Below are positions 2,213 to 63,457 of a stretch of DNA of 64,000 nucleotides, piece after piece. Both the position numbers and the translations under genes were made by a program. The stretch is taken from the NCBI GenBank assembly GCA_016182425.1, contig JACPGP010000030.1:11738-75737 (forward strand), read 5' to 3'. This DNA comes from Candidatus Levyibacteriota bacterium (GTDB lineage Bacteria; Patescibacteriota; Microgenomatia; Levybacterales; UBA12049). The notes beneath the pieces were generated by a model. That model worked only from the letters and a program-made list of their open reading frames with translations, searched no databases and was not told the DNA's origin. Positions within the stretch are counted from its first letter, which is position 1. Every line of letters begins with the position of its first letter.

Positions 2213-3487
2213 TTATGAGAGCTCAAGAATCGGAAATTGCCGAAGCGAATCTTTTGCCTCCTGCAGATTATACACGGTTTCGCTGTAAAGTGTATAGAGC
2301 AGCTCATCCTTTTTTACCTGCTCGCCAATTTTCTTATGAAAAAAAATGCCGGCTCCTTTTTGCATTGGGCTTCCCAGGATTTTGGCAACCATGGTGATAT
2401 TTTTATTATGAATTTTTTTGACTGTTTTATGATTGGTGGCCCGTTGTTCGTAAGTAAATTTTCCAGCACATAGATCGTCGCTTGTGATATGGGGATTTCC
2501 GCCCTGCTCTTTGATGATCTCGCGCATTTTTTGCCAAGCACCGCCACTTTGTAAAATACGCTCTGCCCAAACAGCGCAGTTTTTGTAGGTTTTTTTAATC
2601 TGCTCTATTTTTGTTTTTGGAGCGTCATTAAGACAAAGCTCAAGAAGATTACTTGCCAGATAAAGACTTTTTTTCTCAAGTTCAAGCGGTCTGTCTGCTT
2701 TTTGCTCCAATACCTTAAGTCCATCTTTTGCTTCAAGCACAGGCCCAACGCCATTTCCAGCAGGCTCTTCAACCGCATTAATCAGCACGCGAATTTTTAT
2801 GCCAAAGCGTTTGGCAAGCTGCTCAAATTTACTCTTGATGATCTCAGCGTCGCTTAACCTATGTACCTTGACAGTTGGGCCATAAGGAAGGTCAATAATA
2901 ACATGCGTTGAACCAAAAGCTACCTTTTTTGCCATAATGGAAACTAAGATTTTATCATAGCTTTCAAAAAGCAGAGGCTCCTCGACTTTAATCATCACAT
3001 CGTCAGCTGGCGCGATACGAAAACTGCCGCCCCACACAATGCACCCTTTAGTTTTTTTCACTATATCGTAAATTTTTTTCTTCTCAAATATCACCGGCGC
3101 CAGTGTTTCCATGGTATCTGCTGTGCCACTGGGCGTAGTGATGGCGCGGGACGAGCTTTTGGGAATAGTAAAACCGGCTGCTGCTACAATAGGTACCACA
3201 ATCAGCGTGGTGCGTGTTCCCGGCATGCCTCCTATTGAATGCTTGTCCGCAACTAAGCCACGAAACTTTAGTTTTTGCCCTGTTTCTACCATAGCTTTGG
3301 TCAAAAAATATATTTCGTCATTTGTAAAACCCTTGGCATATCCGGACGCGGCAAAATAAGTAGTTAAAATATCACCTAATCTATTCCTGGCGATTTCATC
3401 CATAATCGCGTAGATTTCTTGGTAGGTAAGTTTTTTTCCGACCAGTTTTTTTCTAATCGCATCGATGGCAATTTCTTTTTCGTCCAT
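2213..3487 (-). CDS. thymidine/pyrimidine-nucleoside phosphorylase family protein (possible AMP phosphorylase)
   Basis: Glycosyltransferase family 3 motifs HSIGGMPGTRTT and TPSGTADTMETLA. Start set at internal Met (MDEKEIAIDA) because the longer ORF overlaps the upstream sortase gene. Confidence 0.75.
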   Translation of the reverse strand: MDEKEIAIDAIRKKLVGKKLTYQEIYAIMDEIARNRLGDILTTYFAASGYAKGFTNDEIYFLTKAMVETGQKLKFRGLVADKHSIGGMPGTRTTLIVVPIVAAAGFTIPKSSSRAITTPSGTADTMETLAPVIFEKKKIYDIVKKTKGCIVWGGSFRIAPADDVMIKVEEPLLFESYDKILVSIMAKKVAFGSTHVIIDLPYGPTVKVHRLSDAEIIKSKFEQLAKRFGIKIRVLINAVEEPAGNGVGPVLEAKDGLKVLEQKADRPLELEKKSLYLASNLLELCLNDAPKTKIEQIKKTYKNCAVWAERILQSGGAWQKMREIIKEQGGNPHITSDDLCAGKFTYEQRATNHKTVKKIHNKNITMVAKILGSPMQKGAGIFFHKKIGEQVKKDELLYTLYSETVYNLQEAKDSLRQFPILELS

Positions 3488-3497
3488 AATGATTAAG

Positions 3498-4235
3498 TTA
3501 AATCGGCACCAGCCTTCCTCTGATAATGAGTCGTTTCCAAGTGGTGCCGGGAGGGGTACAAGTAACCAGGGTAAGATACGAACCATCAAAATTTTGCGAA
3601 AAAACAGATGTGTCGGTAGGATCAACCACAAAAATGGTTTTTACCTTGTATCGATACGAGACACCCTCCAAAGTGGCGATAATCTCGTCATTTATTCTTA
3701 GTTTATAGGCATTTGCAAAAATCGTGGCGTAGTCGTTGGGATTAAAAAGTTGAGGAAGTGTGGAGTGTCCAAAGATAACCGCATTGCCGTTTTGAGGAGG
3801 CAGGCTTGTTCCCGGGTAGTGTACTAGATGATGGTTCAAATCATAATCGGTTGTTGAGACTATAGCTTCTTTAATTCCCAAGGCGGGGATAGATAAATTA
3901 TACCGCTCTACTTTTATGGCTGATTGGTTACTTTCTTTATTTTGATAGGAAGGAAACCAGTTTTGGGCATCTTTGTAATCAACGCCGTTTGCCATTTGCG
4001 ATGCCCAAAACTTAAGGCTTTTAATAGTTTCTTCGGTGACTATGGTGGTTTTTGGAATTGGCGCGGTAATATCTTGCGAGGCAAATACCGGATCAAAATA
4101 AATGTGCCAGGAAAAAAGAGGAAACGATACGTAGCCTGCCATGCTTATTCCCAAGATAACAAGCACCAGCGCTAAGATGCGAAAGAGGAAGCGGCGATTT
4201 GCGCCCCCACCCCTTTTATAATAGTAGGCAGTCAT
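3498..4235 (-). CDS. sortase family transpeptidase
   Basis: N-terminal TM, His motif VIFGHS, catalytic TLVTCTP (TLxTC) motif and a conserved Arg near the C-terminus. Confidence 0.7.
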   Translation of the reverse strand: MTAYYYKRGGGANRRFLFRILALVLVILGISMAGYVSFPLFSWHIYFDPVFASQDITAPIPKTTIVTEETIKSLKFWASQMANGVDYKDAQNWFPSYQNKESNQSAIKVERYNLSIPALGIKEAIVSTTDYDLNHHLVHYPGTSLPPQNGNAVIFGHSTLPQLFNPNDYATIFANAYKLRINDEIIATLEGVSYRYKVKTIFVVDPTDTSVFSQNFDGSYLTLVTCTPPGTTWKRLIIRGRLVPI

Positions 4236-6397
4236 TCTTTTTCAACGATAATAGTTATATTACGCGATAGTTTAGGAAGAAGTTTTGGCAGAAGTGGGAG
4301 ATTCGGCGAAAGTTTTATCCGCGCGCTGACGACCTGGGGCAGCCTTTTAAGCGTGTTTTGGGCATCGTCGAAAGATTTCCCCTCGACTTGTTTTCCGATT
4401 TTTTCCTTCTCAAATTTAGGCAATAAAAATGTTTGTGCTCGGATAATACCTGTTGCCTCACCGTCATTTTTCTTCTGCTCGTTTTCCACCTGATAGGAAA
4501 TGTCATCTAACACGCCCAAGCGGTTACCCTTTTCTTTTAAGAGATCTTTGGCCAGCTTCCTAAGATCGTTCTCTTGGTAGGAAAGATTCTCGTAGGTGAC
4601 GCTTCCTGCAAGAGTAAATGATTTTGCCTCTTCGTCTATTTTATTGCTGATATTTTTTTGAGAAAACTTGGCATTGGTAATAAGAGGAAAAAGTTTGGTT
4701 TTAGAGTCAATTTTTCCCTCCAGATCTTTTTTGGCTTTTTCCTCAAGCTGTTTTGTTAGTTCAGACACGGCATCCTCAACGTCTTTTTTGGAAACAACGC
4801 TGACTTCCTTTTTTGTTCCACCCGAAAATGCCTCTTCATTTTTCGCTTCTACCGATGCGGCATTAAACGAGGATAGAGTAAATTTGACGCCCGATGGTAA
4901 ATTAAACTCCTTGCCAATATCTTTAGCAATAACCGCCGCTTTGACAGTTTTTTGTCCATCGCTGGCGCCTGATACAGATGCCACTTTCACTGTCTGATCC
5001 AACAGAAACTCCAGTTTGTTGGTGGCTGTCAGCACGGTTCCTTTAGAAAATGTTTGTTCATTTGTCAGGTTGCTGTAAATTGTGATATTACCTTTGGCTT
5101 TTTCTCCTAAGTCTTTTTTGCCTGTGGCAGGTTTTGTTATTTTTCCTTCTTCCTCAACGTTCACTATTTGCGCGGCAATAATCTTTTTCCCCACATCTGT
5201 TGGGGTGACACTTGAAAATGTCACAGCCTGTTTTTGCTCGATGACTTCGGGTTTAACGACCAAGGTGATAGTTGCTTTAAGGAAGAAAACGTAAGAAAGA
5301 AGAATAACAATAGCCAGAAAAACTAGAGCGGGAGGTATAAAAAGAAGGATTTTTTTCCTTGGCGGCTGGTCATAAGACCTGGTAAAGGTGGGGAATCGGA
5401 GCAAGCGGACAGCCGCGAATATTTTTTTTGCGGCAGAAAAAACCATTTTCCAAATTGTCGTAATCAGTTTTTGATGTTGTTTGGTAGCGTAGTGAATTTT
5501 GAGAGAGTCTGCTTTACCAGATGTTTTTTTAATATCTTCTTCTTTAATAAAACCAAATTCTTCTTCTTTTTCTTCTTCTTGTGGTTGTGGTGTGGGCGCG
5601 TTTTCTTCTGTAGAGAGTTCTTCTTCGGTGGCATTTTTTTCCTGGGGCAGCATCTCCAGTCCCATCTGTGATGCCGCTCCAAAAAGGATTGCTCTAATGT
5701 CAAAACCCTTTGGTAAAAGTGTAATCTGCGGGACGTGGAGAAATGGAAGACTTTTGCTCCAGGAGTGTCCAATAAATGTTTGCGAAAGTGTTTCGTTATC
5801 ATCTTTATCTGATAGAACGATAATTCTTGATGGGAGCACTTCGTAGCTGGTAAAGTGATGCAGTAGGCGGTCGGTAATTTTGGCTGCATCATCCTCTATT
5901 TTTGTCCGTTTTGCTTCAATGATTCTTCCCGCGCGAAGGAGCGAAACAATAATGTTTTTTTGCCCGATTTCCACTAGGATTCCCGAAACCGGCGCGCCCT
6001 CTTCTTGCTGAAGAAGGTGCGCAATCGCCTCGTTAATTATTAAAAAGCCTATGGGGATAAGACCAAGGGCATCGCTGGTTTTTTTTAATTTTATCAAGTA
6101 TTCTTTTTTGATTTTTGTTTCTTCTACCCAGTTTTCTTTTATACCAAAAATTGTTTCTTGGGTTTCGATGCCCTCTGGTAAGGCGCTTTCTGCCCCAGAG
6201 ATAGCTTTGTCCAAGACCTCCAGCCACTCCTCTAGGGTAGCCGTTTCCAGATTATTGACGTATGCTTCTTTTTTCCCGATAATCCGTACTACGCCGGTGA
6301 TTTTCTCAAAAATTACAGCCGTGACTTTTTCGTCCCGCAAGAGGAGGGTTAAAAAATATTCTTTTTCTTCTTTTTTCCTCAAAAAAGGCAAATTCAT
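4232..6397 (-). CDS. membrane protein with N-terminal FtsA/PilM-like actin-fold domain and large Lys/Thr/Glu-rich extracytoplasmic region
   Basis: Segments resembling actin-like ATPase phosphate/adenosine motifs (GILVEIGQKNIIVSLLRAGRI, LGLIPIGFLIINEAIAHLL). Acidic low-complexity linker and one TM (LLFIPPALVFLAIVILLSYVFFL). Four-nt overlap with the sortase gene. Confidence 0.35.
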   Translation of the reverse strand: MNLPFLRKKEEKEYFLTLLLRDEKVTAVIFEKITGVVRIIGKKEAYVNNLETATLEEWLEVLDKAISGAESALPEGIETQETIFGIKENWVEETKIKKEYLIKLKKTSDALGLIPIGFLIINEAIAHLLQQEEGAPVSGILVEIGQKNIIVSLLRAGRIIEAKRTKIEDDAAKITDRLLHHFTSYEVLPSRIIVLSDKDDNETLSQTFIGHSWSKSLPFLHVPQITLLPKGFDIRAILFGAASQMGLEMLPQEKNATEEELSTEENAPTPQPQEEEKEEEFGFIKEEDIKKTSGKADSLKIHYATKQHQKLITTIWKMVFSAAKKIFAAVRLLRFPTFTRSYDQPPRKKILLFIPPALVFLAIVILLSYVFFLKATITLVVKPEVIEQKQAVTFSSVTPTDVGKKIIAAQIVNVEEEGKITKPATGKKDLGEKAKGNITIYSNLTNEQTFSKGTVLTATNKLEFLLDQTVKVASVSGASDGQKTVKAAVIAKDIGKEFNLPSGVKFTLSSFNAASVEAKNEEAFSGGTKKEVSVVSKKDVEDAVSELTKQLEEKAKKDLEGKIDSKTKLFPLITNAKFSQKNISNKIDEEAKSFTLAGSVTYENLSYQENDLRKLAKDLLKEKGNRLGVLDDISYQVENEQKKNDGEATGIIRAQTFLLPKFEKEKIGKQVEGKSFDDAQNTLKRLPQVVSARIKLSPNLPLLPKLLPKLSRNITIIVEKE

Positions 6398-21512: not shown

Positions 21513-22569
21513 ATGAAAGGGATCCTTTTAGGAGTTGTAGTTTTGGTTTTGGCCCTTGGTTTTGTTGTATTCAATAGCAATCTTAAAGAAGATAAAAAAT
21601 CAGCACCCGAAAATCCGGCTCCGACAAAAGCTCATGTACTATCTGCAACAAATAGCAAAGAAACAAAACTACTTTTTGTCCCATATTGGGGGCAGACGCA
21701 AGAGAGGATTCCAGACTCATTTGGGGAGGAGCTTGTTTATTTTGGTATTGCTCCAGGTAGTGATGGAATTGACAAAGAAGAACCAGGATACATGGGGTTG
21801 GCACGATTTGAGGCTATTTCAGAAGGGCGAGATACATTGTTAACACTTCGCATGATTGATCAGAATATGAGCTTCCCAATACTCAAAGACAAACCAAGAC
21901 AAAAAAAAAATAATTGACGAGTCAATTGCAATTGCAAAGCAATATAATTTTGAAGGAATAGTTTTGGATCTTGAAATTAGCAGTCTTCCTTTCGCCTCTG
22001 TTACTGAGCAGATGAATAGTTTTGTTGAGGAATTTTCTAAAGCAGCAAAAAAAGAAAATCTCACATTTTCCATGATGTTTTTCGGCGATACGTTTTTTAA
22101 ACTCCGGCCATACGATGTAACTGTATTACGGCAGTATCTAGATATTGTTTTTGTTATGGCATATGATTTTCATAAAGCAAATGCCAATCCAGGACCTAAT
22201 TTCCCTTTTCCTGATTTTACTCTTATGGTGCAAGATTTTTTAAATATCGTTCCCAAAGAAAAACTGGTGATTGTGTTTGGTATGTTTGGGTATGATTGGG
22301 AAATTGATGAACATAATAAATCTGTAGAACAAGCAAGGGCAGTAACACTAACTGTGGCAAAAAAGCAGTTTCTTGATCAATGCATTTTTCGAAACTGTAA
22401 AGTTTTAAGAGATGAAAAATCAAAGGAAACAACAGTGACGTATATTGATAAGAATGGAGACAAGCATATTGTCTGGTTTGAAGATGAAGAATCAGTAGCT
22501 AAAAAAACAGAATTTCTTAAAGAAAAAGGAATTAATAGTGTCGGCTTTTGGGCATACTCATACTTCTAA
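21513..22569 (+). pseudogene. glycoside hydrolase family 18-like protein interrupted by a frameshift at an A10 homopolymer
   Basis: ORF 21513..21917 (TM plus LLFVPYWG, LVYFGIAP, TLLTL strands) and ORF 21964..22569 (FEGIVLDLE resembling the DGIDIDWE catalytic block, MAYDF, GINSVGFWAYSY). They rejoin if the tract at 21901-21910 changes by one base. Confidence 0.5.
21901..21910. repeat. A10 homopolymeric tract inside GH18-like gene
   Basis: Read directly from the sequence. Marks the frame-switch point. Confidence 0.9.
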
Positions 22570-23286
22570 AACGTAGGGCGTTTTATGTTTATATTCATTT
22601 TCTTTGACTCTTTTGATCACTTTTTTGGCATTTATTAATTCTTTTTTAACTATTTCTTCAATAGGCAGTTTTTGCTCAAAATAATAATAAAGTACTTGGT
22701 CGGCTTCTTCATAGGTAAAGCCAAATTCTTCTTCATCAGTTTGGCCTTGCCATAGTCCTGCAGTTGGTGGTATATTGATAATTTCTTGCGGAACATTAAG
22801 ATATTTTGCAAGCTCATACACCTGCGTTTTATACAAGTGTTGTATTGGTTCAATATCAGATGCACTATCACCAAAACGAGTAAAATAGCCAAGGAGATGT
22901 TCGGACTTATTTTCTGTGCCAACCACCAGCGCTTTATTTTTTTTTGCCAAATCATATAAAAAGATCATTCGAACCCGTGCCATAATGTTTCCGATACGAA
23001 CATTGTCGTTTCGACTTACGCCAAGATTTTGTACACAAGCGTCAACAGCCTCTTTTATTGAAAGATCATAATTTTTTTTTGGAATGGCAACATAAGGTGA
23101 AAAATAGGCAAGAGAAATAGGAAAAATATTTTTTTCTGGGATAGCTCTTTTAAGAAGCAAAAAACTTACTGCTGAATCAATGCCGCCAGAAAGACCAATC
23201 ACGGCGTTTTTAATTTTTTGTTCTGCAAAAGTTTTTTTGAGAAAGGCTATAATTCGCTCTGTTTCTTTTTTAGGGTCGGTTTTCAT
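22558..23286 (-). CDS. nadE: ammonia-dependent NAD+ synthetase
   Basis: PP-loop GLSGGIDSAV. About 242 aa. Confidence 0.8.
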   Translation of the reverse strand: MKTDPKKETERIIAFLKKTFAEQKIKNAVIGLSGGIDSAVSFLLLKRAIPEKNIFPISLAYFSPYVAIPKKNYDLSIKEAVDACVQNLGVSRNDNVRIGNIMARVRMIFLYDLAKKNKALVVGTENKSEHLLGYFTRFGDSASDIEPIQHLYKTQVYELAKYLNVPQEIINIPPTAGLWQGQTDEEEFGFTYEEADQVLYYYFEQKLPIEEIVKKELINAKKVIKRVKENEYKHKTPYVLEV

Positions 23287-23849
23287 AGGTATAGTTTGTG
23301 TTTGGTAATATACGCCTCTACTTCTTTTGGCACAAGATGTGTGATAGGTAATTTCTTTTTTATTCTTTCGCGAATTATTGTTGAGGAGAGATTTGTTGTT
23401 ATAAGATCTTCTCCTGTAATTATCTCAAACCCTTTAGGAAGTTTTTTAGGTTTGGAAAATGGATCTCTGGGAAACACCAGAAATGTAGCTAGATTTGTTA
23501 AATTTTCTGTCTTTTCCCACCGAGAAAATTCCAAAAGTATATCACTCCCTACTATCCAATATATATCGTGATTAAACCTCTTTTTAATATCCCGGATGGT
23601 ATCAATGGCATAACTTACTCCTCCTCGCCTAAGTTCTGTATCAGAGACTTTCATGGAGTTATTTACAAAATATTTAAGCATCGAAAGTCTATCGGCACCT
23701 TTTGCTTCTATCGGCTTCCATTGGTGTTTATTTGCCGGAATAAACAAAACCTCTTTGATATCTGGTCTTTTTTCTAAAATTTGTTTGGCAACAAGCCAGT
23801 GCCCAATATGCGGAGGGTCAAACCTTCCCCCAAAAATAGCAATTCTCAT
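23283..23849 (-). CDS. nadD: nicotinate-nucleotide adenylyltransferase
   Basis: IFGGRFDPPHIGH (HxGH) motif. Four-nt overlap with nadE. Confidence 0.8.
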   Translation of the reverse strand: MRIAIFGGRFDPPHIGHWLVAKQILEKRPDIKEVLFIPANKHQWKPIEAKGADRLSMLKYFVNNSMKVSDTELRRGGVSYAIDTIRDIKKRFNHDIYWIVGSDILLEFSRWEKTENLTNLATFLVFPRDPFSKPKKLPKGFEIITGEDLITTNLSSTIIRERIKKKLPITHLVPKEVEAYITKHKLYL

Positions 23850-35848: not shown

Positions 35849-36390
35849 AAATAGTGCTTATTGGCATTCAGGGATCTGGAAAATCAACCCAGGGAAACCT
35901 GCTTTCTAAAAAATTGAAAATTCCCTATCTTTCGACAGGGCATATTTTTAGAGAATTAGCAAAAGAGCGCACAAATCTTGGGCGTTACATCAAAGAAGTT
36001 ATGAACGCAGGATATCTTATCCCAGATGATAAGACTCTTGAGATAGTATCTGAGTATTTAAAAAGAGATGAATATAAAAACGGATATATTCTTGATGGAT
36101 TTCCACGAACACCATTGCAAGCTAAAGCATTCAAAAATGGCATCGATAAAGTTATTTATCTTAAAGTATCCGATAAGGAAGCGCTTTGGCGTCTTTCTCT
36201 TCGTAATGATGGTGAGGGGCGAGAGGATGATACATTAAGGGCAATTCATAAACGTATTGAGCTTTTTCATAAATTTACCGAGCCGGTTCTTTCTTTTTAC
36301 AAAAAGATCGGTGAACTGGTGGAAATAGATGGTGAGGCGGATATTAAGATAATACACAGACAGATTCTTAAAGTCTTGGGGGTGGCATGA
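35845..36390 (+). CDS. adk: adenylate kinase (short, no zinc lid)
   Basis: [11 protein letters not shown]-loop. 181 aa. Canonical position after secY. Confidence 0.85.
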
Positions 36391-36953
36391 GCAAAAAACA
36401 GATTCTCGCGTTTGTAGGCATGCCCGGTTCTGGTAAGAGTTTAGTTGCCTCGTACTTACAAAAAAAAGGATTGCCATTTGTTCGTTTTGGTGATCTTACC
36501 AAGCAAGAAATTGCTCGTCGAAAACTTACCCTATCGCCGGAGAATGAGCAAGTGGTCCGTGAATCCATAAGGCAGGAGTTTGGCATGGCTGCATTTGCTA
36601 CAAAAGCAAAACCCAAAATTAAGGAGTTATTTTTATCCCACGACACTGTAGCTATAGACGGGATGTATTCGTGGGAAGAATATTTGTTTCTTAAAGAAAC
36701 ATTTTCTTATGTTTTTGTTATTCATATTTTTGCAAATCGCAGCATTCGTTACGAACGTTTGGCAAAGCGAAAGGCTCGTCCTTTTACAACAAAGCAGGCT
36801 CAAAAAAGGGATTTTGCAGAGATAGAAAAACTTAATAAAGGCGGCCCAATTGCAATTGCAGATTATCTTATAGATAACACAAGTGATAACAAAGAAGAAC
36901 TTTATAAAAAAATTGATAAATTGCTCTTAGTGCTTGGAATAAAAAATGGTTGA
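36387..36953 (+). CDS. P-loop nucleoside/nucleotide kinase family protein (dephospho-CoA kinase-like / UPF0200-like)
   Basis: GMPGSGKS Walker A, about 188 aa, ATGA overlap with adk. Specific substrate not assignable from sequence. Confidence 0.4.
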   Translation: MSKKQILAFVGMPGSGKSLVASYLQKKGLPFVRFGDLTKQEIARRKLTLSPENEQVVRESIRQEFGMAAFATKAKPKIKELFLSHDTVAIDGMYSWEEYLFLKETFSYVFVIHIFANRSIRYERLAKRKARPFTTKQAQKRDFAEIEKLNKGGPIAIADYLIDNTSDNKEELYKKIDKLLLVLGIKNG

Positions 36954-55150: not shown

Positions 55151-55975
55151 ATGGTAAAGACTACTAAAATTGCAATCTTTGAAGGTAAAAAAATTCGAAG
55201 ACATTGGGATGAAAAAAAGGAAAAGTGGTATTTCTCGGTTGTTGATGTTGTTGCCGCTCTTTCTGAAAGTGAAAACCCACAAGTGTACTGGCGGGTGATG
55301 AAAAAAAGATTGATAGACGAAGGCGCAAATGAAACCGTTACAAAATGTAACGGTTTGAAAATGTTAGCAGCCGACGGCAAAATGAGATTAACAGATGTTG
55401 CAGATACAGAAACTATGTTTCGTATTATCCAGTCTATTCCTTCTCCACATGCTGAACCATTTAAGTTGTGGCTTGCCAGAGTTGGTTATGAAAGGGTTGA
55501 AGAATCAGAAGATCCAGAAATTGCCATTCAAAGGGCAATACGCTTCTATCTCAAGCGCGGGTATTCCCAAAATTGGGTCAATCAAAGATTAAAAAGTATA
55601 GAAGTTAGAAAAGAATTAACAGATGAATGGGAGCAAAAGGGTGTTAAAGAAAACACAGAATTTGCTACGCTAACAGATGAAATTACTTTTGCATGGGCAG
55701 GAATGAAAACAAAAGATTACAAAAAATATAAAGAGCTTAAAAAAGAAAACTTACGAGATAACATGACTAATTTGGAACTTGTGCTAAATATGCTTGCGGA
55801 AGCATCGACAACAGAAATATCTAAAAAAGTTATGCCAAAAAGTTTTGAAGAAAATAGAAAAGTTGCAAAACAAGGTGGATCAATTGCAGGTTCTGCCAGA
55901 AAACAAATAGAAAACAAAACAGGAAAAAAAGTGGTTACGAAATTAAACGCTAAAGGTTTAGGGTTGCTTAAATAG
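55151..55975 (+). CDS. Bro-N domain protein, DinD-like (mobile-element/phage-associated)
   Basis: N-terminal Bro-N signature (FEGKKIRRHWDEKKEKWYFSVVDVVAALSESENP). Length 274 aa, like E. coli DinD. Slightly lower GC than the flanks. Confidence 0.55.
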   Translation: MVKTTKIAIFEGKKIRRHWDEKKEKWYFSVVDVVAALSESENPQVYWRVMKKRLIDEGANETVTKCNGLKMLAADGKMRLTDVADTETMFRIIQSIPSPHAEPFKLWLARVGYERVEESEDPEIAIQRAIRFYLKRGYSQNWVNQRLKSIEVRKELTDEWEQKGVKENTEFATLTDEITFAWAGMKTKDYKKYKELKKENLRDNMTNLELVLNMLAEASTTEISKKVMPKSFEENRKVAKQGGSIAGSARKQIENKTGKKVVTKLNAKGLGLLK

Positions 55976-57306: not shown

Positions 57307-57779
57307 AGATTTTCTATTTTTACCCCATCACCATTTTTGAAACCGTATTTTTTGGAAAGCCCTGCGTTGATCTCAAGCACCTTGTCTGCCGGCTCATCAG
57401 GCCTAAAAATTTGTAGATTATCTTCAGGGGATTTTGGCGCTTGTGCATTTTCAATAATAGTAACAATTTTGTCTTTGTTAATATAGATAATATCTACAGA
57501 AATCTTCATATTTTTCATCCAGAAAGAGTAGTAATCCGCCTTTTCGAAGGGAAACAGCATGCCAGAATTTTGAGGAAGCGATGTTTTTTCCGACAGTCCA
57601 ACCTCTTTTTCTTGAGGTGTTTTAGCAACAAGGATAGTAAATGTGTGATTTTTGATAGTAAGAGTCGGATTTTTTTCAAAAAACGGAAACGGCAAGTTTT
57701 TTTTAAGATCGCTTTGAAAAAAAACAATGCCAAACACAACAGCAAGAAGAAGCCCAAAAAGCAGAAGAACCATTTTCAT
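57303..57779 (-). CDS. DUF192 (COG1430) domain protein
   Basis: Signal/TM N-terminus and a conserved beta-rich DUF192 pattern. Confidence 0.5.
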   Translation of the reverse strand: MKMVLLLFGLLLAVVFGIVFFQSDLKKNLPFPFFEKNPTLTIKNHTFTILVAKTPQEKEVGLSEKTSLPQNSGMLFPFEKADYYSFWMKNMKISVDIIYINKDKIVTIIENAQAPKSPEDNLQIFRPDEPADKVLEINAGLSKKYGFKNGDGVKIENL

Positions 57780-58255
57780 ATAGATAAAAGTTTGGTTAAC
57801 TGACTTGTTGATGCATCCTTGACGCGTTCCATAACATCTATAACAGTTGTTCCCATAAGTTTTGCTTGTCTTTCTTTGTGATATCTTTTGGGATCTCCCT
57901 TTGTGGTTGCGATTATAGTAGGTTTTATTTTGAATAGCAAATTATCATAGTCACGGTCCTTATTAAGCGACGGAAGAAGAATGATGTAGTCAACCATATT
58001 TAAGGTGCTAAGTACTAAAGCGCGATCCTTTTGTGGGTGGATCGGACGTTTATTACCTTTTGTTAATTGAATTGTTTGATCGCTTTCTAACATTACAAAT
58101 AGCACATCTCCTTGTTGTTTTGCCTTCTCTAAAAACAGTACATGTCCAGGATGAAGAATATCAAAACAACCACCCACCAAAACGATTTTTTTTCCTTCAC
58201 TTCTTAACTTTTTTGAAAGTCGTTCTGCTTGTTCAATGGTTAAAATTTTATTCAT
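57776..58255 (-). CDS. cytidylyl/adenylyltransferase-like protein (HIGH-motif nucleotidyltransferase, RfaE-II/TagD-like)
   Basis: GGCFDILHPGH motif. Start chosen at MNKILT, abutting the VanW stop. Confidence 0.55.
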   Translation of the reverse strand: MNKILTIEQAERLSKKLRSEGKKIVLVGGCFDILHPGHVLFLEKAKQQGDVLFVMLESDQTIQLTKGNKRPIHPQKDRALVLSTLNMVDYIILLPSLNKDRDYDNLLFKIKPTIIATTKGDPKRYHKERQAKLMGTTVIDVMERVKDASTSQLTKLLSI

Positions 58256-59637
58256 TCCTTTGTTCCTTTTAAGTAAACTGCTTGCCAAGGTCTGTAATTT
58301 GACACAAACTTGTCATTTATAATAATTTTTCCGTTTTTTGCCACCTTTCTTGTAAATATCGATGTTGCACCTGCTGCTGCAAAGTCAGTTTGTCGTACCA
58401 CTCCCTTTGCCAGCGTTGGATCGTCTTGATAGAGGGGAGCTGGGGCTTGGGTCTCATTGGTAATTACAGGCTTGCTTATAGTAACTTGCCTTCCATCTGC
58501 TGTGCCATAGAGGGAAAAGGTTAGGCGCTCGGTGGTTGGATCAAGTTCAGTTTGGATGAGAATATGGTTTCCAGTATCATTTTTAAACCGTAAGTCAATG
58601 CTTGGAACATAGACAGTTGCGTCAAATCCAGGAGGAGAGTCTTGTTCGTAATAGCCAACGCGATAGTCATGTGCATGCCGTTCTACAATGGGAAGACCAG
58701 CAGCAAGAAGTGCGCGAAAAAAAGTGGTTGATACTTGGCATACTCCTCCGCCATCACCCAAGACAGTTCGTCCGTCTTGTATAATGTACGCCTGTTTATA
58801 GCCTGTAAAAGAAGAAATATCACCAAGCGCGTTGCCAAACGAAAAGGTTTCCCCAGGAAGAACAAGTAGTCCGTTAAGTCTTGTTGCCGCAAGAGTAATG
58901 TTATAGATCCTATTGGGTATTGAGTGTTGAAAAAGCGATGTTCCACTCCCGATGAGTTCTTTTATGCCAAGGTTATTTGCTTCGTCTGTAGTTACTTTTG
59001 GTTTTATAATCTTAATAGGAATATCAAATAATACTCTCTGAGGCTTTTCCAGCTGGACGATAAGCGGCGTTTTAAGGGAAATTTTTCTGGTGAGTATTTC
59101 CATATCGACTTTTTGCCCATTACTTGATGGTTTGAATGCGGCGACTCTCCCATTCCTAAATTTAAAGAGCGCGTCTACAGCTTCAATAGAAGCATTTTTA
59201 ACAATTGGAGCAAGAGTGTGTTGGAGTTTTTCATCGGAATACTGGTATGAAGCGGGGAGATTTATACCGTTAAGGTAGGATTGTAGTACAAGACTGATAT
59301 TTGCCAGTAAATCTTTAGATCTTCCAATACTGTAGGCCTGTTCGGCAAGTAGATTTTCGTTGTATCCAAGATTTAATTTTTCGGCAGATACAGTTGCCAC
59401 ACGCGTTTCGTAGATAAATACCATCTCTGTTTTTCCAATACGAGTATTTTTCTGGGCAAAAAAAGTTTTAACATCATTTTGGGTTTTTCCCCCAAATTCA
59501 ATTTCTGCAATGCTTATTCCAGGAAATATTCGATTGTTGTAGTATTTTTGGAATACAATAAAGGTAAAACTTATAAAGAAGAATAAGCCTAAGCCCGCGC
59601 CGATAAAAAACCAAAAGACGCCGTGCATTATTTTCAT
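58252..59637 (-). CDS. VanW family protein
   Basis: N-terminal TM, central PG-binding-like region and C-terminal VanW domain (PGETFSF...). Confidence 0.6.
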   Translation of the reverse strand: MKIMHGVFWFFIGAGLGLFFFISFTFIVFQKYYNNRIFPGISIAEIEFGGKTQNDVKTFFAQKNTRIGKTEMVFIYETRVATVSAEKLNLGYNENLLAEQAYSIGRSKDLLANISLVLQSYLNGINLPASYQYSDEKLQHTLAPIVKNASIEAVDALFKFRNGRVAAFKPSSNGQKVDMEILTRKISLKTPLIVQLEKPQRVLFDIPIKIIKPKVTTDEANNLGIKELIGSGTSLFQHSIPNRIYNITLAATRLNGLLVLPGETFSFGNALGDISSFTGYKQAYIIQDGRTVLGDGGGVCQVSTTFFRALLAAGLPIVERHAHDYRVGYYEQDSPPGFDATVYVPSIDLRFKNDTGNHILIQTELDPTTERLTFSLYGTADGRQVTISKPVITNETQAPAPLYQDDPTLAKGVVRQTDFAAAGATSIFTRKVAKNGKIIINDKFVSNYRPWQAVYLKGTKE

Positions 59638-59675
59638 TTGCCTTAATTCCCGTTTAGGTATTATACTATAAAGTT

Positions 59676-61031
59676 ATGGAGGAAAGTACCATTTTTCAGC
59701 GCGCAGAGTTACCGACGCCGATTAAAGAAGAAAAAGTATTTCCTTTTCCTCTTCTTATTAAAGGAGTATTTGGATTATTCATTGTTATTATTATTTTTGT
59801 TGTTTGGCAATTTGTTTTACCAAGATTTAAGGGAAGTAATAACGAAGTAATAACGCTTTCTCACTGGGGGTTGTGGGAAGAAGAAAATGTTATGCGGGTA
59901 GTATTGAATGATTTTGAAAAGCAAAATCCCCAGATTAAAGTCGATTATGTAAAACAAGATGTAAAACAGTACAGAAGTCGCATAATCACGCGAACAGAAA
60001 ATGGTACAGGGCCAGATGTGTTTTTGTTTCACAATACCTGGCTTCCGCAAATAATATCTAATCTTTTGCCAATGCCTTACGATGTTATGCCAAAAGACGA
60101 GCTGCAAAAAACATTCTATCCTGTTGTGGTAAACGACCTTACCCAAAAAGGTGCGATATACGGCGTTCCAGCAGGTATAGATACTCTAGCTTTGTTTATT
60201 AATTCTGAGATGTTTAAGCAGGCAGGGATTATACCCCCAACAAATTGGCAGGATTTTGGAACAGCGGCCAGAACGTTAACAGTTAAAGATGAGACCGGAA
60301 AAATTAAAACTGCAGGAGCAGCAATGGGAACATTTGATAATATTACTCACGCTCCTGATCTTATATCACTTCTTATGGTGCAAAATGGGGCAAATATTAA
60401 CGATATGGTAGAAACCAGAGAAAGCATTATTGATGCATTAGATTTTTATACATCTTTTGCAAAAGACGAGGGCAGAGTGTGGGATGCGACACTTGACCCA
60501 TCCCTTCTTGCCTTTGCAAAGGGAAATCTTGCCATGTATTTTGGCTACTCGTGGGACATTTTTGCCATAAAACAACTAAACCCTCAGCTTTCTTTCCAGA
60601 TTGTTCCAGTTCCTCATTTGCCAGGGAGAAATATGACTATGGCAAGCTATTGGGTAAATGGTGTAAACGCCAAGAGCAAATATCAAAAAGAAGCACTGCT
60701 TTTAATAAAATTTCTCTCTATGAAAGAGACGATGCAAAAAATCTTTTCCGAAAGCTCAAAAACAAGAACTTTTGGCGAGCCATATCCAAGAATTGACCTG
60801 GCAGATAGTCTTAAAGACAATTCTCTTGTGTATCCATTTATTACCTCGGCCAATGATGCCACATCTTCTTTTTTTGCCAGTGATACATTTGACGAGGGGA
60901 TAAATAATCAAATGAATGCCTACCTTGGGAATGCAGTGCGCTCGATTCTTGGCAATACCTCGTTAGATTCAGTAGTAGATACTCTTATCCAAGGCGTTAA
61001 TCAAGTACTGCAACAGTATGCAGAATTTTAG
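59676..61031 (+). CDS. extracellular solute-binding protein (ABC sugar-type, family 1)
   Basis: Signal anchor then periplasmic-binding-protein type 2 fold. 451 aa. Confidence 0.65.
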   Translation: MEESTIFQRAELPTPIKEEKVFPFPLLIKGVFGLFIVIIIFVVWQFVLPRFKGSNNEVITLSHWGLWEEENVMRVVLNDFEKQNPQIKVDYVKQDVKQYRSRIITRTENGTGPDVFLFHNTWLPQIISNLLPMPYDVMPKDELQKTFYPVVVNDLTQKGAIYGVPAGIDTLALFINSEMFKQAGIIPPTNWQDFGTAARTLTVKDETGKIKTAGAAMGTFDNITHAPDLISLLMVQNGANINDMVETRESIIDALDFYTSFAKDEGRVWDATLDPSLLAFAKGNLAMYFGYSWDIFAIKQLNPQLSFQIVPVPHLPGRNMTMASYWVNGVNAKSKYQKEALLLIKFLSMKETMQKIFSESSKTRTFGEPYPRIDLADSLKDNSLVYPFITSANDATSSFFASDTFDEGINNQMNAYLGNAVRSILGNTSLDSVVDTLIQGVNQVLQQYAEF

Positions 61032-61887
61032 TCTCCATAAAAGCATTCTCAAAACTCTTGCCTATGCAGATATATTTGATTCGCCATTGACGCTTCATCA
61101 GCTTTGGCAATTTCTTATTAGCGAAAGAAGAGTAGATAAAAACGTAGTGGAACGTAGCATAGCAACTATTCTTACTATTGAAAAGATAAATGACTACTTT
61201 TGTTTTCGGGGAAGAGCGCACATCGTAGATAAAAAAATTGCGACTATTGCAGATAGTAGCGAAAAATATAGGAGGGCGGCCAAAGCATCATTATTTCTCT
61301 CACGGATTCCAACAGTTGTTCTTATTGGTGTGAGTGGTGGCTTGGCAGTTGGAAATGTTTCAAAGGATGATGATATTGATTTGTTTATTATTGCCCAAAA
61401 GGGCACTCTATGGATGACACGATTTTTTAGTAACCTTTTATTAGATGCACTTAGAATGCGCAGAAAAAGAGGAGCAAGGGATATTTCTGGTAAAATATGT
61501 CTTAATATGTTTATCGAGGAGAGGGGTATTGCAATTCCTAAGAACAAACAAAATTTATATACTGCACACGAAATTGCGCAGATGATATTACTTTTTGAGA
61601 GAAATAATACCTATCAACGATTTTTACAGGCAAATACGTGGGTAGAGAAGTTTTTACCAAATAGTATAGATATTAAGAAAAAATTACCAATCTTAATATC
61701 TGAATATCTTAGTATCTTTTTATCTTCATTCGAGTTTCTTGCAAAGAAAGTACAGCTTTGGTATATGAAGAAGCATAGGACAAGAGAGGAAATTAATGAT
61801 TATATACTTGCTTTTTACCCATTTGATTATGAGAAGAAGTTGTTAAAAAAATATGAAGAGAGACTTAAAAAGTATCATATAGCATGA
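61018..61887 (+). CDS. Pol-beta-superfamily nucleotidyltransferase domain protein of unknown function
   Basis: hG[GS]-x(9-13)-DhDh signature: IGVSGGLAVGNVSKDDDIDLFI. Overlapping ends with neighbours on both sides. Confidence 0.4.
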   Translation: MQNFSLHKSILKTLAYADIFDSPLTLHQLWQFLISERRVDKNVVERSIATILTIEKINDYFCFRGRAHIVDKKIATIADSSEKYRRAAKASLFLSRIPTVVLIGVSGGLAVGNVSKDDDIDLFIIAQKGTLWMTRFFSNLLLDALRMRRKRGARDISGKICLNMFIEERGIAIPKNKQNLYTAHEIAQMILLFERNNTYQRFLQANTWVEKFLPNSIDIKKKLPILISEYLSIFLSSFEFLAKKVQLWYMKKHRTREEINDYILAFYPFDYEKKLLKKYEERLKKYHIA

Positions 61888-62873
61888 GACGATTTCGACT
61901 TGCTGCATGCGGGGGAACATTTGATCATTTTCATAAAGGACATAGAGATTTTTTGCAATTTGCCCTAAAGAATGCAGATAAGCTTATTATTGGTATCACA
62001 AGCGACAAGTATCCTGATAATAAACGGGAGGAGATAGAAAGCTTTTCTTCTCGGAAGTTAAGCGTTTATTCTTTTTTAGAAAGAGAAAGCGCTATAAACA
62101 AGACAGAAATTATATCAATAGATGATGTGTATGGCCCAACGATTTCAAAAGCAGTTCCAATAGAGGCAATTATTGTTTCTGAACAGACGCAAAAAGGCGC
62201 AGAGCTTATTAACAATTACAGGCAAGAACTTGGGTTATTGTCTCTTAAGATGCTGGTGTCTCCCATGACAAAAGCGCAAGATAATGGTATTATTTCTTCC
62301 TTAAGAATTAGGCGTGGTGAGATTGACAGGGAAGGAGAGTTGTATATGCATCCTTCTTTGTTATTCCAAAAGCGAGTGCTCCCAGAAGACCTACGACAAA
62401 AACTTAAAAAGCCTTTGGGAGTTCTTTTAAGAGGCAAAAGCATCCTTCGTGGTCTTGATCCTCAAAAAACAATAACAGTAGGAGATGTTGTTACAAAAAC
62501 GTGTAATGAGTCATCATTTGGTCAAAAAATATCGGTGATTGATTTTTATGTTGGAAGAGAAAAAAAATTTTCCAATATTTTAGAGCTTGGTTTTTTGGGG
62601 AAAGAGGAAATAATGTCAGTTACTAATCCTGCTGGAAGTTTAACGCCAGAACTTTTCAAAGCGGCAAGAGATATTTTTCTTACAGAAAAAGACAAGCGAT
62701 GCGTTGTAAAAGTTGAGGGAGAAGAAGATTTAGCAGTTTTGCCATTTCTACTTGCTGCTCCTTTGAGTTTTACCATTCTGTACGGACAGCCAAATGTTGG
62801 AGTTGTAAGAGTGAATGTTTCTGAAGAAATGAAGAACGTTGCCCGTAATATTGTTTCTCAATTCATCTCATAG
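61884..62873 (+). CDS. fusion protein: archaeal-type phosphopantetheine adenylyltransferase (N-terminal) + DUF359/COG1909-like domain (possible GTP-dependent dephospho-CoA kinase) (C-terminal)
   Basis: N-terminal CGGTFDHFHKGH, GITSD, AIIVSEQTQKGAELIN and ISSLRIRRG match archaeal PPAT. The C-terminal ~180 aa carry GDVVT and VEGEEDLAVLP motifs. Confidence 0.55.
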   Translation: MRRFRLAACGGTFDHFHKGHRDFLQFALKNADKLIIGITSDKYPDNKREEIESFSSRKLSVYSFLERESAINKTEIISIDDVYGPTISKAVPIEAIIVSEQTQKGAELINNYRQELGLLSLKMLVSPMTKAQDNGIISSLRIRRGEIDREGELYMHPSLLFQKRVLPEDLRQKLKKPLGVLLRGKSILRGLDPQKTITVGDVVTKTCNESSFGQKISVIDFYVGREKKFSNILELGFLGKEEIMSVTNPAGSLTPELFKAARDIFLTEKDKRCVVKVEGEEDLAVLPFLLAAPLSFTILYGQPNVGVVRVNVSEEMKNVARNIVSQFIS

Positions 62874-62977
62874 TATTTTTACTAGAGGTTCTTGACAAAA
62901 GCCAGTGGTATACTATACTATGCACTTGTTTTGTTTCCCTCCTTAAATTTATTTGCGAGGGATTTTTCTTTGAAAGT

Positions 62978-63457
62978 ATGGGAAAAGATAAAAAAATTTA
63001 TCTCACGAAAGAAGGTCTTGTAGAGCTTAAAAAAGAACATGATGATCTCACCAAGGTTCGTCGTCCAGAAGTTCTCGAACGGGTTTCGCAGGCAAGAAGT
63101 CTGGGTGATCTTTCGGAAAACGCAGAATACGCAGCCGCCAGGGAAGAACTTTCTTTTATTGACGGTAGAATTGATGAATTAGAAGAACTGCTTCGTCAGG
63201 TAAATATTATCAGCGAAGGAGGAAAAAGGGGGAAATCTGCTAAGGTAATAAAGCTTGGATCTAGAGTTTCTCTTCACGTGAATGGGAAAAAAGAGGAGTT
63301 TTTGGTGGTAGGAGAATGGGAAGCAGATCCCGCAGCCCAAAAAATTTCCCATGAATCTCCTTTAGGTAAAGCTTTAATCGGGAAAAAGATTGGAGATAAG
63401 GTTGAAGTTGCTGCCCCAGTAGGTAAAATTCTTTATACGGTTTTTGATGTTAGATAG
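62978..63457 (+). CDS. greA: transcription elongation factor GreA
   Basis: LTKEGLVELKKEHDDL start, coiled-coil then FKBP-like C-terminal domain. 159 aa. Confidence 0.85.
   Translation: MGKDKKIYLTKEGLVELKKEHDDLTKVRRPEVLERVSQARSLGDLSENAEYAAAREELSFIDGRIDELEELLRQVNIISEGGKRGKSAKVIKLGSRVSLHVNGKKEEFLVVGEWEADPAAQKISHESPLGKALIGKKIGDKVEVAAPVGKILYTVFDVR

Follow-up and report, generated by a model that had tools for sequence, protein, structure and literature searches.

A 64-kb stretch of DNA from a Candidatus Levyibacteriota bacterium (contig JACPGP010000030.1, 64,000 nucleotides, referred to throughout as the window) encodes a protein in which an archaeal-type phosphopantetheine adenylyltransferase (PPAT) is fused to a member of the DUF359 family of archaeal GTP-dependent dephospho-coenzyme A kinases (DPCK). 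The gene occupies positions 61884..62873 on the plus strand, starts with ATG and encodes 329 amino acids (aa), the PPAT domain being N-terminal and both domains lying in one uninterrupted frame; its reading is supported by the listing of open reading frames (ORFs), the Pfam and NCBIfam matches to the two domains, an exact match in NCBI and an AlphaFold2 model. The protein is predicted to be a bifunctional enzyme of archaeal type for the last two steps of coenzyme A (CoA) synthesis, a reading to which we give a probability of about 85%. The PPAT domain (aa 4-154) would transfer AMP from ATP onto 4'-phosphopantetheine, yielding dephospho-CoA and pyrophosphate. The DUF359 domain (aa 166-327) would then phosphorylate the 3'-hydroxyl of dephospho-CoA with a nucleoside triphosphate to give CoA, so that both reactions would proceed on one polypeptide. 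GTP is the probable donor of the phosphate for the DUF359 domain, as it is for the homologous enzyme of Thermococcus. An earlier note on this DNA had proposed such a pairing of archaeal-type PPAT and DUF359 kinase in a bacterial genome; its coordinates, domain boundaries and all quoted motifs are borne out, and its core reading is supported by profile scores, catalytic-residue conservation and fold comparison.

The N-terminal half consists of the PPAT domain, located at 61893..62345 on the plus strand. The NCBIfam model for PPAT of the COG1019 type, NF001985, aligns with residues 4-154 over profile positions 4-153 of 157 and reaches 143.5 bits, above its cut-off of 104, and Pfam places CTP_transf_like at residues 9-144 with 54.7 bits. 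The model for the bacterial enzyme CoaD, TIGR01510, yields only 18.4 bits and does not attain its cut-off of 103.3. Among solved structures compared by sequence, the half matches the PPAT-type protein of A. fulgidus (PDB 3do8, E 5e-18). The C-terminal half carries the DPCK domain of the DUF359/arCOG04076 family (aa 166-325; 62379..62858, plus strand). PF04019, the Pfam model of DUF359, covers residues 203-327 and profile positions 1-125 of 126 with 99.5 bits against a gathering threshold of 25 (E 1.4e-28), the NCBIfam model of GTP-dependent DPCK, NF041125, matches residues 166-325 with 90.3 bits (E 1e-25), and the T. kodakarensis DPCK is found among solved structures by sequence (PDB 8jvc, E 1e-20). 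The fusion protein has no match to CoaE in the Pfam and NCBIfam profile searches. The profile searches that the earlier note had suggested for the two halves thus give matches to the DUF359 and the archaeal-type PPAT models, in agreement with its assignment of the N-terminal half to the archaeal/eukaryotic type rather than to CoaD and of the C-terminal half to the COG1909/DUF359 family. NCBI holds an identical protein under the name 'MAG: pantetheine-phosphate adenylyltransferase [Candidatus Levybacteria bacterium]'.

The motifs of both families are present. In the PPAT domain, the HxGH motif, H17-K-G-H20 (61932..61943, plus strand), is preceded by GGTFD (aa 10-14) and followed by GITSD (aa 37-41) and by the ISSxRIR motif, here ISSLRIR (aa 137-143; 62292..62312, plus strand), which aligns with ISSTRIK of 3do8. 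Across the HIGH nucleotidyltransferase superfamily, HxGH serves in nucleotide binding. The DUF359 domain contains GDVVT (aa 200-204; 62481..62495, plus strand), GEEDLA (aa 279-284; 62718..62735, plus strand) and YGQP (62781..62792, plus strand). In the alignment with 8jvc, D201 of GDVVT corresponds to Asp48 of the T. kodakarensis protein TK1697, D220 (62541..62543, plus strand) to Asp67, and D282 of GEEDLA to Asp125. TK1697 is a GTP-dependent DPCK, and its mutants D48A and D67A support very poor growth while D125A is impaired (PMC6650551). Conservation was assessed in 83 fusion proteins, bacterial and archaeal, and in a second alignment of 38 close homologues at 45-70% identity. H17, G19, H20, D201, D220, R225, G279, E280, D282, Y300, G301 and G306 are kept in all 83 (83/83), and the ISSxRIR motif tolerates slight variation, with S139 retained in 79/83, R141 in 74/83 and R143 in 80/83. 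Among the 38 close homologues, D201, D220, D282, T12, D14, H17, G19, H20, R141 and R143 are invariant.

The alignment-based AlphaFold2 model of the fusion protein has a predicted local distance difference test score (pLDDT) of 92.4 and a predicted template modelling score (pTM) of 0.88. Compared with the PDB by Foldseek, its kinase part superimposes on 8jvc with a template modelling (TM) score of 0.81 and an E-value of 2e-14, at 35% identity over 176 columns. The PPAT part resembles 3do8 (TM 0.80-0.85, 28-30% identity) more closely than bacterial CoaD structures, for which TM scores of about 0.58-0.66 and identities of 14-20% are obtained. Because the catalytic residues are conserved and the fold matches with confidence, both active sites appear intact and under purifying selection.

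The fusion is widespread among relatives. A collection of 5.8 billion proteins contains 703 homologues, the top 120 of which all carry both Pfam domains; together with the E-value of the DUF359 match, this lies well outside what chance would produce. A search with the DUF359 domain alone returns 2134 clusters at 50% identity (E<=1e-3), and nearly all of the best 150 clusters have a length near 330 aa and bear the domain in their C-terminal half. Across the species-representative genomes of GTDB, relatives are encoded at at least 487 loci, and each of the best 80 encodes both domains in a single ORF without interruption; in total, 82/82 related loci examined show one uninterrupted ORF with PPAT at the N-terminus. 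The bacterial hosts among these 80 are Levybacteria, Gottesmanbacteria, Chisholmbacteria, Beckwithbacteria, Roizmanbacteria, Woesebacteria, unclassified Microgenomates and Paceibacterota, while 11 genomes are archaeal, belonging to Micrarchaeota/Norongarragalinales, Aenigmatarchaeota and Poseidoniales (Marine Group II). Within this lineage the fusion is not unusual: Levybacteria and other Microgenomatia have it as a rule, and for archaea the arrangement has already been published. The candidate standalone DUF359 proteins of bacteria of the Candidate Phyla Radiation (CPR) were rejected as such, since the short matches come either from fragments located on small contigs or from gene calls that are shorter than the gene. 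One such call is found in Gottesmanbacteria RBG_16_37_8 (L031, MFJA01000039.1), where the DNA at 4001-5011 encodes both domains in one ORF of about 353 aa without interruption and the deposited protein, OGG03128.1, comprises 190 aa, covers the DPCK half only and bears the UniRef name 'GTP-dependent dephospho-CoA kinase'. Since this call is shorter than its ORF, the fusion is under-called in some annotations.

These data bear on the possibility of a different chemistry, in which one or both domains would have drifted to another substrate, the cytidylyltransferase-like domain adenylylating flavin mononucleotide, nicotinamide mononucleotide (NMN) or a sugar phosphate, or the DUF359 domain phosphorylating a compound that is not dephospho-CoA, and no CoA would be made. 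The cytidylyltransferase-like superfamily is functionally diverse, with three members in the window alone (NadD, an RfaE-domain-II-like protein and the fusion), the equivalog cut-off of the DPCK model is missed, and DUF359 is distantly related to thiamine pyrophosphokinases (PMC6650551). Such drift is nevertheless improbable, given that the PPAT model scores above its curated cut-off, whereas the NCBIfam models for NMN adenylyltransferase, RfaE, glycerol-3-phosphate cytidylyltransferase and CoaD give 17-24 bits, and given that all mutagenesis-validated DPCK residues and the family motifs are invariant. In addition, the fusion recurs colinearly in hundreds of genomes from both domains of life, for which the catalysis of consecutive reactions is the simplest explanation.

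Some observations weigh against the assignment of a bifunctional archaeal-type enzyme. The 90.3 bits obtained with NF041125 lie under its equivalog cut-off of 300; this model (deph_CoA_kin_Thcocales) was built for Thermococcales, and failing it means that the protein is no close orthologue of that clade, not that it lies outside the family. As the model is specific to Thermococcales and its cut-off is missed, DPCK orthology is a matter of inference rather than of certification. The gene context likewise lends no help: the searches for CoA genes covered the window and, for neighbours, the flanks of related loci, and in none of the lineages checked does a CoA-related gene stand beside the fusion. 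A conserved CoA operon was looked for among the same neighbours and none was found, no neighbour family being common across classes and the adjoining genes being unrelated housekeeping genes. Finally, neighbour-joining trees with bootstraps, computed for the DUF359 domain and for the full-length protein, have an unresolved backbone, in which the split between Archaea and Bacteria receives 0-4% bootstrap support, and therefore leave the direction and number of transfers undecided.

The host is a bacterium and not an archaeon like those of the published fusions; it belongs to the Levyibacteriota, which are Patescibacteria (CPR) of the Microgenomates group. The window encodes a bacterial gene set, comprising rpoB/rpoC, rpoA, a ribosomal-protein cluster with fusA and tuf, secY-adk-map, recA, RNase Y, tsaD and greA. 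The fusion is the last gene of a co-oriented run, following a gene for an extracellular solute-binding protein (59676..61031, plus strand; Pfam SBP_bac_8 and SBP_bac_1) and a nucleotidyltransferase-like gene (61018..61887, plus strand). The solute-binding protein gene overlaps the next gene by 14 nucleotides (nt), and the stop codon of the nucleotidyltransferase-like gene overlaps the start codon of the fusion by 4 nt (ATGA). The solute-binding protein gene probably opens the transcription unit containing the fusion, and a promoter-like site with 9/12 matches precedes it at 59638-59667. The 3' boundary of the unit is marked by a strong sigma-70-like promoter match at 62892..62919 (plus strand; TTGACA, 16 nt, TATACT; 11/12 matches), located before greA (62978..63457, plus strand; Pfam).

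This arrangement recurs in relatives as a synteny block, TsaD-DUF192-CTP_transf-VanW followed by solute-binding protein, a facultative nucleotidyltransferase, fusion and GreA, at 40-60% protein identity. The block is present in a complete 762-kb Levyibacteriota chromosome and in many species-representative genomes of relatives. Three independent sequencing runs gave an identical protein and identical gene order, and the fusion gene, with a GC content of 0.371 and a third-position GC content (GC3) of 0.276, is similar to its neighbours. A recent transfer recognisable by composition was considered and rejected, there being no GC or GC3 anomaly. The conserved synteny, native composition and independent assemblies together indicate that the fusion is neither contamination nor a recent import; it is a long-resident, vertically maintained part of the Levybacteria genome. 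An artefact, in the form of misassembled or misbinned archaeal DNA or of two genes joined by a sequencing error, might have been suspected because both domains are archaeal signature families, PF04019 being included in CheckM sets as a single-copy marker of archaea, and because a 'Kaiserbacteria' contig within the fusion family groups at 100% with an archaeal contig, so that misbinning does occur. The probability of an artefact here is negligible. The fusion lies between bacterial genes, with the solute-binding protein gene upstream, greA downstream and rpoB/C and the ribosomal cluster in the same window, and synteny, ORF continuity, independent runs and composition effectively refute the suspicion.

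The contig in question (L047, MFMA01000018.1, 9.5 kb) carries a fusion that groups with that of a Norongarragalinales archaeon (L041) at 100% bootstrap, and the two share a neighbouring cytidylyltransferase-like match at identical coordinates, which points either to misbinning of an archaeal contig as L047 or to cross-domain transfer at a very recent date. Many TPA_asm metagenome-assembled genome (MAG) records designated 'uncultured Gammaproteobacteria' or 'Pseudomonadales' (L004, L005, L007, L008, L010, L012, L013, L016, L022, L024 and others) display Levybacteria-type synteny, with GreA at 60-72% identity as well as the solute-binding protein and VanW, and on account of this synteny they are evidently mislabelled Patescibacteria.

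At shallow levels the trees form defined clades, with Marine Group II at 100%, a Micrarchaeota group at about 62% and a Roizmanbacteria-type clade at 100% bootstrap. Within the pan-archaeal core, DUF359 had been the last member to remain uncharacterised. Both domains being signature families of archaea, the parsimonious reading is that the CPR gene is of archaeal origin; most probably the two parts were already fused when the CPR lineage took up the gene from archaea long ago, the direction being our inference.

Fusions of PPAT with arCOG04076 in uncultured archaea provided the clue to the archaeal DPCK in the study of Shimosaka, Makarova, Koonin and Atomi (2019, mBio, PMC6650551), whose searches retrieved only archaeal members of arCOG04076. 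The archaeal fusions, for instance AIF21550.1 of Euryarchaeota belonging to group II/III, combine the same families in the same N-to-C order on a single polypeptide. Those of Marine Group II and DPANN archaea are colinear with the window protein at 31-39% identity and share all catalytic residues with it, whereas the host of the window protein is a bacterium (Levybacteria, CPR). It is from Marine Group II that the 2019 study drew its original example of the fusion. Considered domain by domain, TK1697 (PDB 8jvc, 8jvf, 8jvg) is a full-length homologue of the window DPCK domain, with equivalents of Asp48, Asp67 and Asp125 and with GEEDLA and YGQP in common, but it is a standalone protein of a hyperthermophile, whereas the window domain is fused and gains only 90 bits on the Thermococcales equivalog model. 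The archaeal PPATs (3do8, T. kodakarensis TK2128 and that of P. abyssi) are of the COG1019 type, as is the window N-terminal domain, and so is the PPAT part of CoA synthase (COASY) in eukaryotes. The likeness to archaeal PPAT extends to the passing of NF001985, the HxGH and ISSxRIR motifs and the TM score of 0.80-0.85 with 3do8; the difference is that the window domain is fused to DPCK and resides in a bacterium.

COASY follows the same logic in joining PPAT to DPCK and uses the same archaeal/eukaryotic type of PPAT. Its kinase, however, is a P-loop protein of the CoaE type, whose fold is unrelated to DUF359 (PMC6650551), while the window kinase is DUF359. The COASY fusion and the PPAT::DUF359 fusion arose independently. 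Bacterial CoaD and CoaE carry out the same two reactions from separate genes, CoaD being a distant superfamily relative of the window PPAT and CoaE having an unrelated P-loop fold. The fusion and both activities were thus known in archaea, and automated names exist for each half, NCBI calling the protein PPAT and UniProt and JGI calling relatives GTP-dependent dephospho-CoA kinase; what is new is the bacterial membership of the fusion family. A search of the literature for the PPAT, DPCK or DUF359 family in CPR bacteria found no describing paper in the searchable library.

In the Roizmanbacteria-type clade, the fusion is extended further. The PPAT::DPCK ORF is preceded in frame by one more domain, about 160 aa in length, which is of the archaeal NMN adenylyltransferase type (NMNAT; 'GRFQPFHxGH...GIGSAN') and gives a triple NMNAT::PPAT::DPCK protein of about 495 aa. 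The model NF002243 scores this domain at 130.3 bits in L052, above the cut-off of 127, and at 117-119 bits in L073 and L080. The triple-fusion loci are L052:3494-4984, L070:3503-5026, L073:3503-4990, L074:3506-5050 and L080:~3500-4996. In L048, a separate cytidylyltransferase-like gene (3478-3948) precedes a two-domain fusion (3983-5002) at a distance of 35 bp, an arrangement that may represent the unfused precursor state.

Physiologically, the bifunctional enzyme could serve salvage alone. The bacterium would then have no upstream pathway (pantothenate kinase, CoaBC), and the fusion would be its sole route to CoA, starting from 4'-phosphopantetheine or dephospho-CoA supplied by a host or by the environment. 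We hold this possibility at somewhat less than even odds; it refines the bifunctional assignment without contradicting it. Canonical coaD and coaE, whose presence elsewhere the earlier note had named as counter-evidence, were looked for in the 64-kb window only, and neither they nor any other CoA-pathway gene were found there. The genes for NAD synthesis in the window are likewise confined to the last two steps, encoded by the NadD and NadE pair, and the Roizmanbacteria-type fusion, by gaining the NMN adenylyltransferase domain, groups the end steps of two cofactor pathways. The fusion is also common to DPANN archaea, which are similarly reduced episymbionts, and early-step mutants of T. kodakarensis grow on CoA-derived compounds (PMC6650551). 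Exclusive salvage is opposed by a survey of CPR that states, in a general remark only, that some Microgenomatia and Paceibacteria MAGs encode enzymes leading from pantothenate to CoA. It is opposed as well by a full lysine-biosynthesis cluster just downstream, which implies that this particular Levybacterium is not maximally reduced, and by the lack of a specifically linked transporter, the adjoining solute-binding protein being of a generic sugar type and kept only in Levybacteria. A broader proposal is more speculative and, in our estimate, rather unlikely: Microgenomatia and some other CPR would make CoA only by two-step salvage of host 4'-phosphopantetheine, through an enzyme of archaeal origin exchanged between CPR and DPANN, the two great groups of ultra-small episymbionts, as a cross-domain 'cofactor end-step' module that in its triple, Roizmanbacteria-type form would serve both NAD and CoA.

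As a predicted enzyme of the last two CoA steps, the fusion provides a testable handle on the CoA supply of genome-reduced episymbionts through 4'-phosphopantetheine salvage. DUF359 has its place in the pan-archaeal core and is treated as an archaeal hallmark, yet many CPR bacteria, forming a large block, possess it as standard equipment. PF04019 continues to serve as a marker of archaeal completeness and as a single-copy marker (CheckM sets), and CPR bins can mislead archaeal marker sets and estimates of contamination. Because annotation names one half only, metabolic reconstructions may miss the final CoA step in CPR.

Among the remaining genes, the one at 36387..36953 (plus strand) encodes a P-loop kinase with generic AAA_17/18 matches and is situated between adk and map in the tail of the spc operon. 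The earlier note had offered this kinase as a possible bacterial-type alternative to the fusion, a suggestion that finds no demonstrable support, and its identification as bacterial CoaE is rejected. PF01121 gives 20.6 bits (cut-off 27) and aligns with aa 7-71, the P-loop, only, and TIGR00152 gives 27.5 bits (cut-off 65.55). The best full-length solved relative is SSO1041 of Sulfolobus, an archaeal UPF0200/AdkA-like protein (E 3e-12), making the kinase another archaeal-flavoured gene inside a core bacterial operon. T. kodakarensis has two P-loop CoaE homologues (arCOG01045) without DPCK activity. The N-terminus encoded by the primer for TK1334 resembles those of SSO1041 ('VTGMP') and the window kinase.

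The nucleotidyltransferase-like gene upstream of the fusion encodes 289 aa with the signature GxSG...DDDIDLF. Its protein consists of a winged-helix-like N-terminus, a Pol-beta nucleotidyltransferase core and a helical C-terminus, and the AlphaFold2 model (pLDDT 91.7) matches the nucleotidyltransferases MNT, AadA, ANT and GlnE over the core in Foldseek. Pfam returns nothing above threshold, NTP_transf_2 and Polbeta reaching about 14 bits consistently in three orthologues. The family comprises 1314 CPR-restricted homologues, all named 'hypothetical', in which D119, I120 and D121 are invariant. The earlier note had placed this gene, as a Pol-beta nucleotidyltransferase, in one operon with the fusion. 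The fold is right and the gene overlaps the fusion start, but the adjacency is limited to about 19 Levybacteria-type loci, about half of such loci, and occurs nowhere outside them, so that it constitutes weak evidence for a functional link, and the gene is best regarded as context outside the system. A role as a CitX/MdcG-like dephospho-CoA transferase was considered and is not supported, as the fold matches MNT, AadA, ANT and GlnE and the adjacency is found only in some Levybacteria.

The other cytidylyltransferase-like genes of the window were considered as a hidden CoaD, and this was rejected, 23283..23849 being NadD and 57776..58288 being RfaE-domain-II-like. NadD scores 26.5 bits on the coaD model, below the cut-off. 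It forms with NadE a pair on the minus strand (22558..23849; TIGR00482 144 bits against a cut-off of 112, NF010587 257.8 against 255), in which the last two NAD steps are encoded together. Flanked by fusA and tuf, the pair runs against the otherwise uniform orientation of the str/S10 ribosomal region. The RfaE-domain-II-like cytidylyltransferase at 57776..58288 (minus strand) obtains 107 bits on TIGR02199, below the cut-off of 181; its gene is conserved in the Levybacteria synteny block beside DUF192 and TsaD, and the organism is probably without lipopolysaccharide.

Directly 3' of greA, in the contig continuation (L083:8130-13883), a lysine/diaminopimelate cluster encodes aspartate kinase, DapB, DapA, Asd, an aminotransferase and LysA, which exceeds the biosynthetic capacity commonly attributed to CPR. 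At 2213..3631 (minus strand), a thymidine/AMP-phosphorylase-like protein with Glycos_trans_3N and PYNP_C domains is encoded; for CPR, a nucleoside salvage route of archaeal type has been reported, and the protein may be part of it. Within 3498..6397 (minus strand), a sortase gene adjoins the gene for a 721-aa protein with a weak Baseplate_J-like match (24 bits). Bro-N domains are typical of phage and mobile-element genes, and one is found in the protein encoded at 55151..55975 (plus strand), between rmuC and tsaD.

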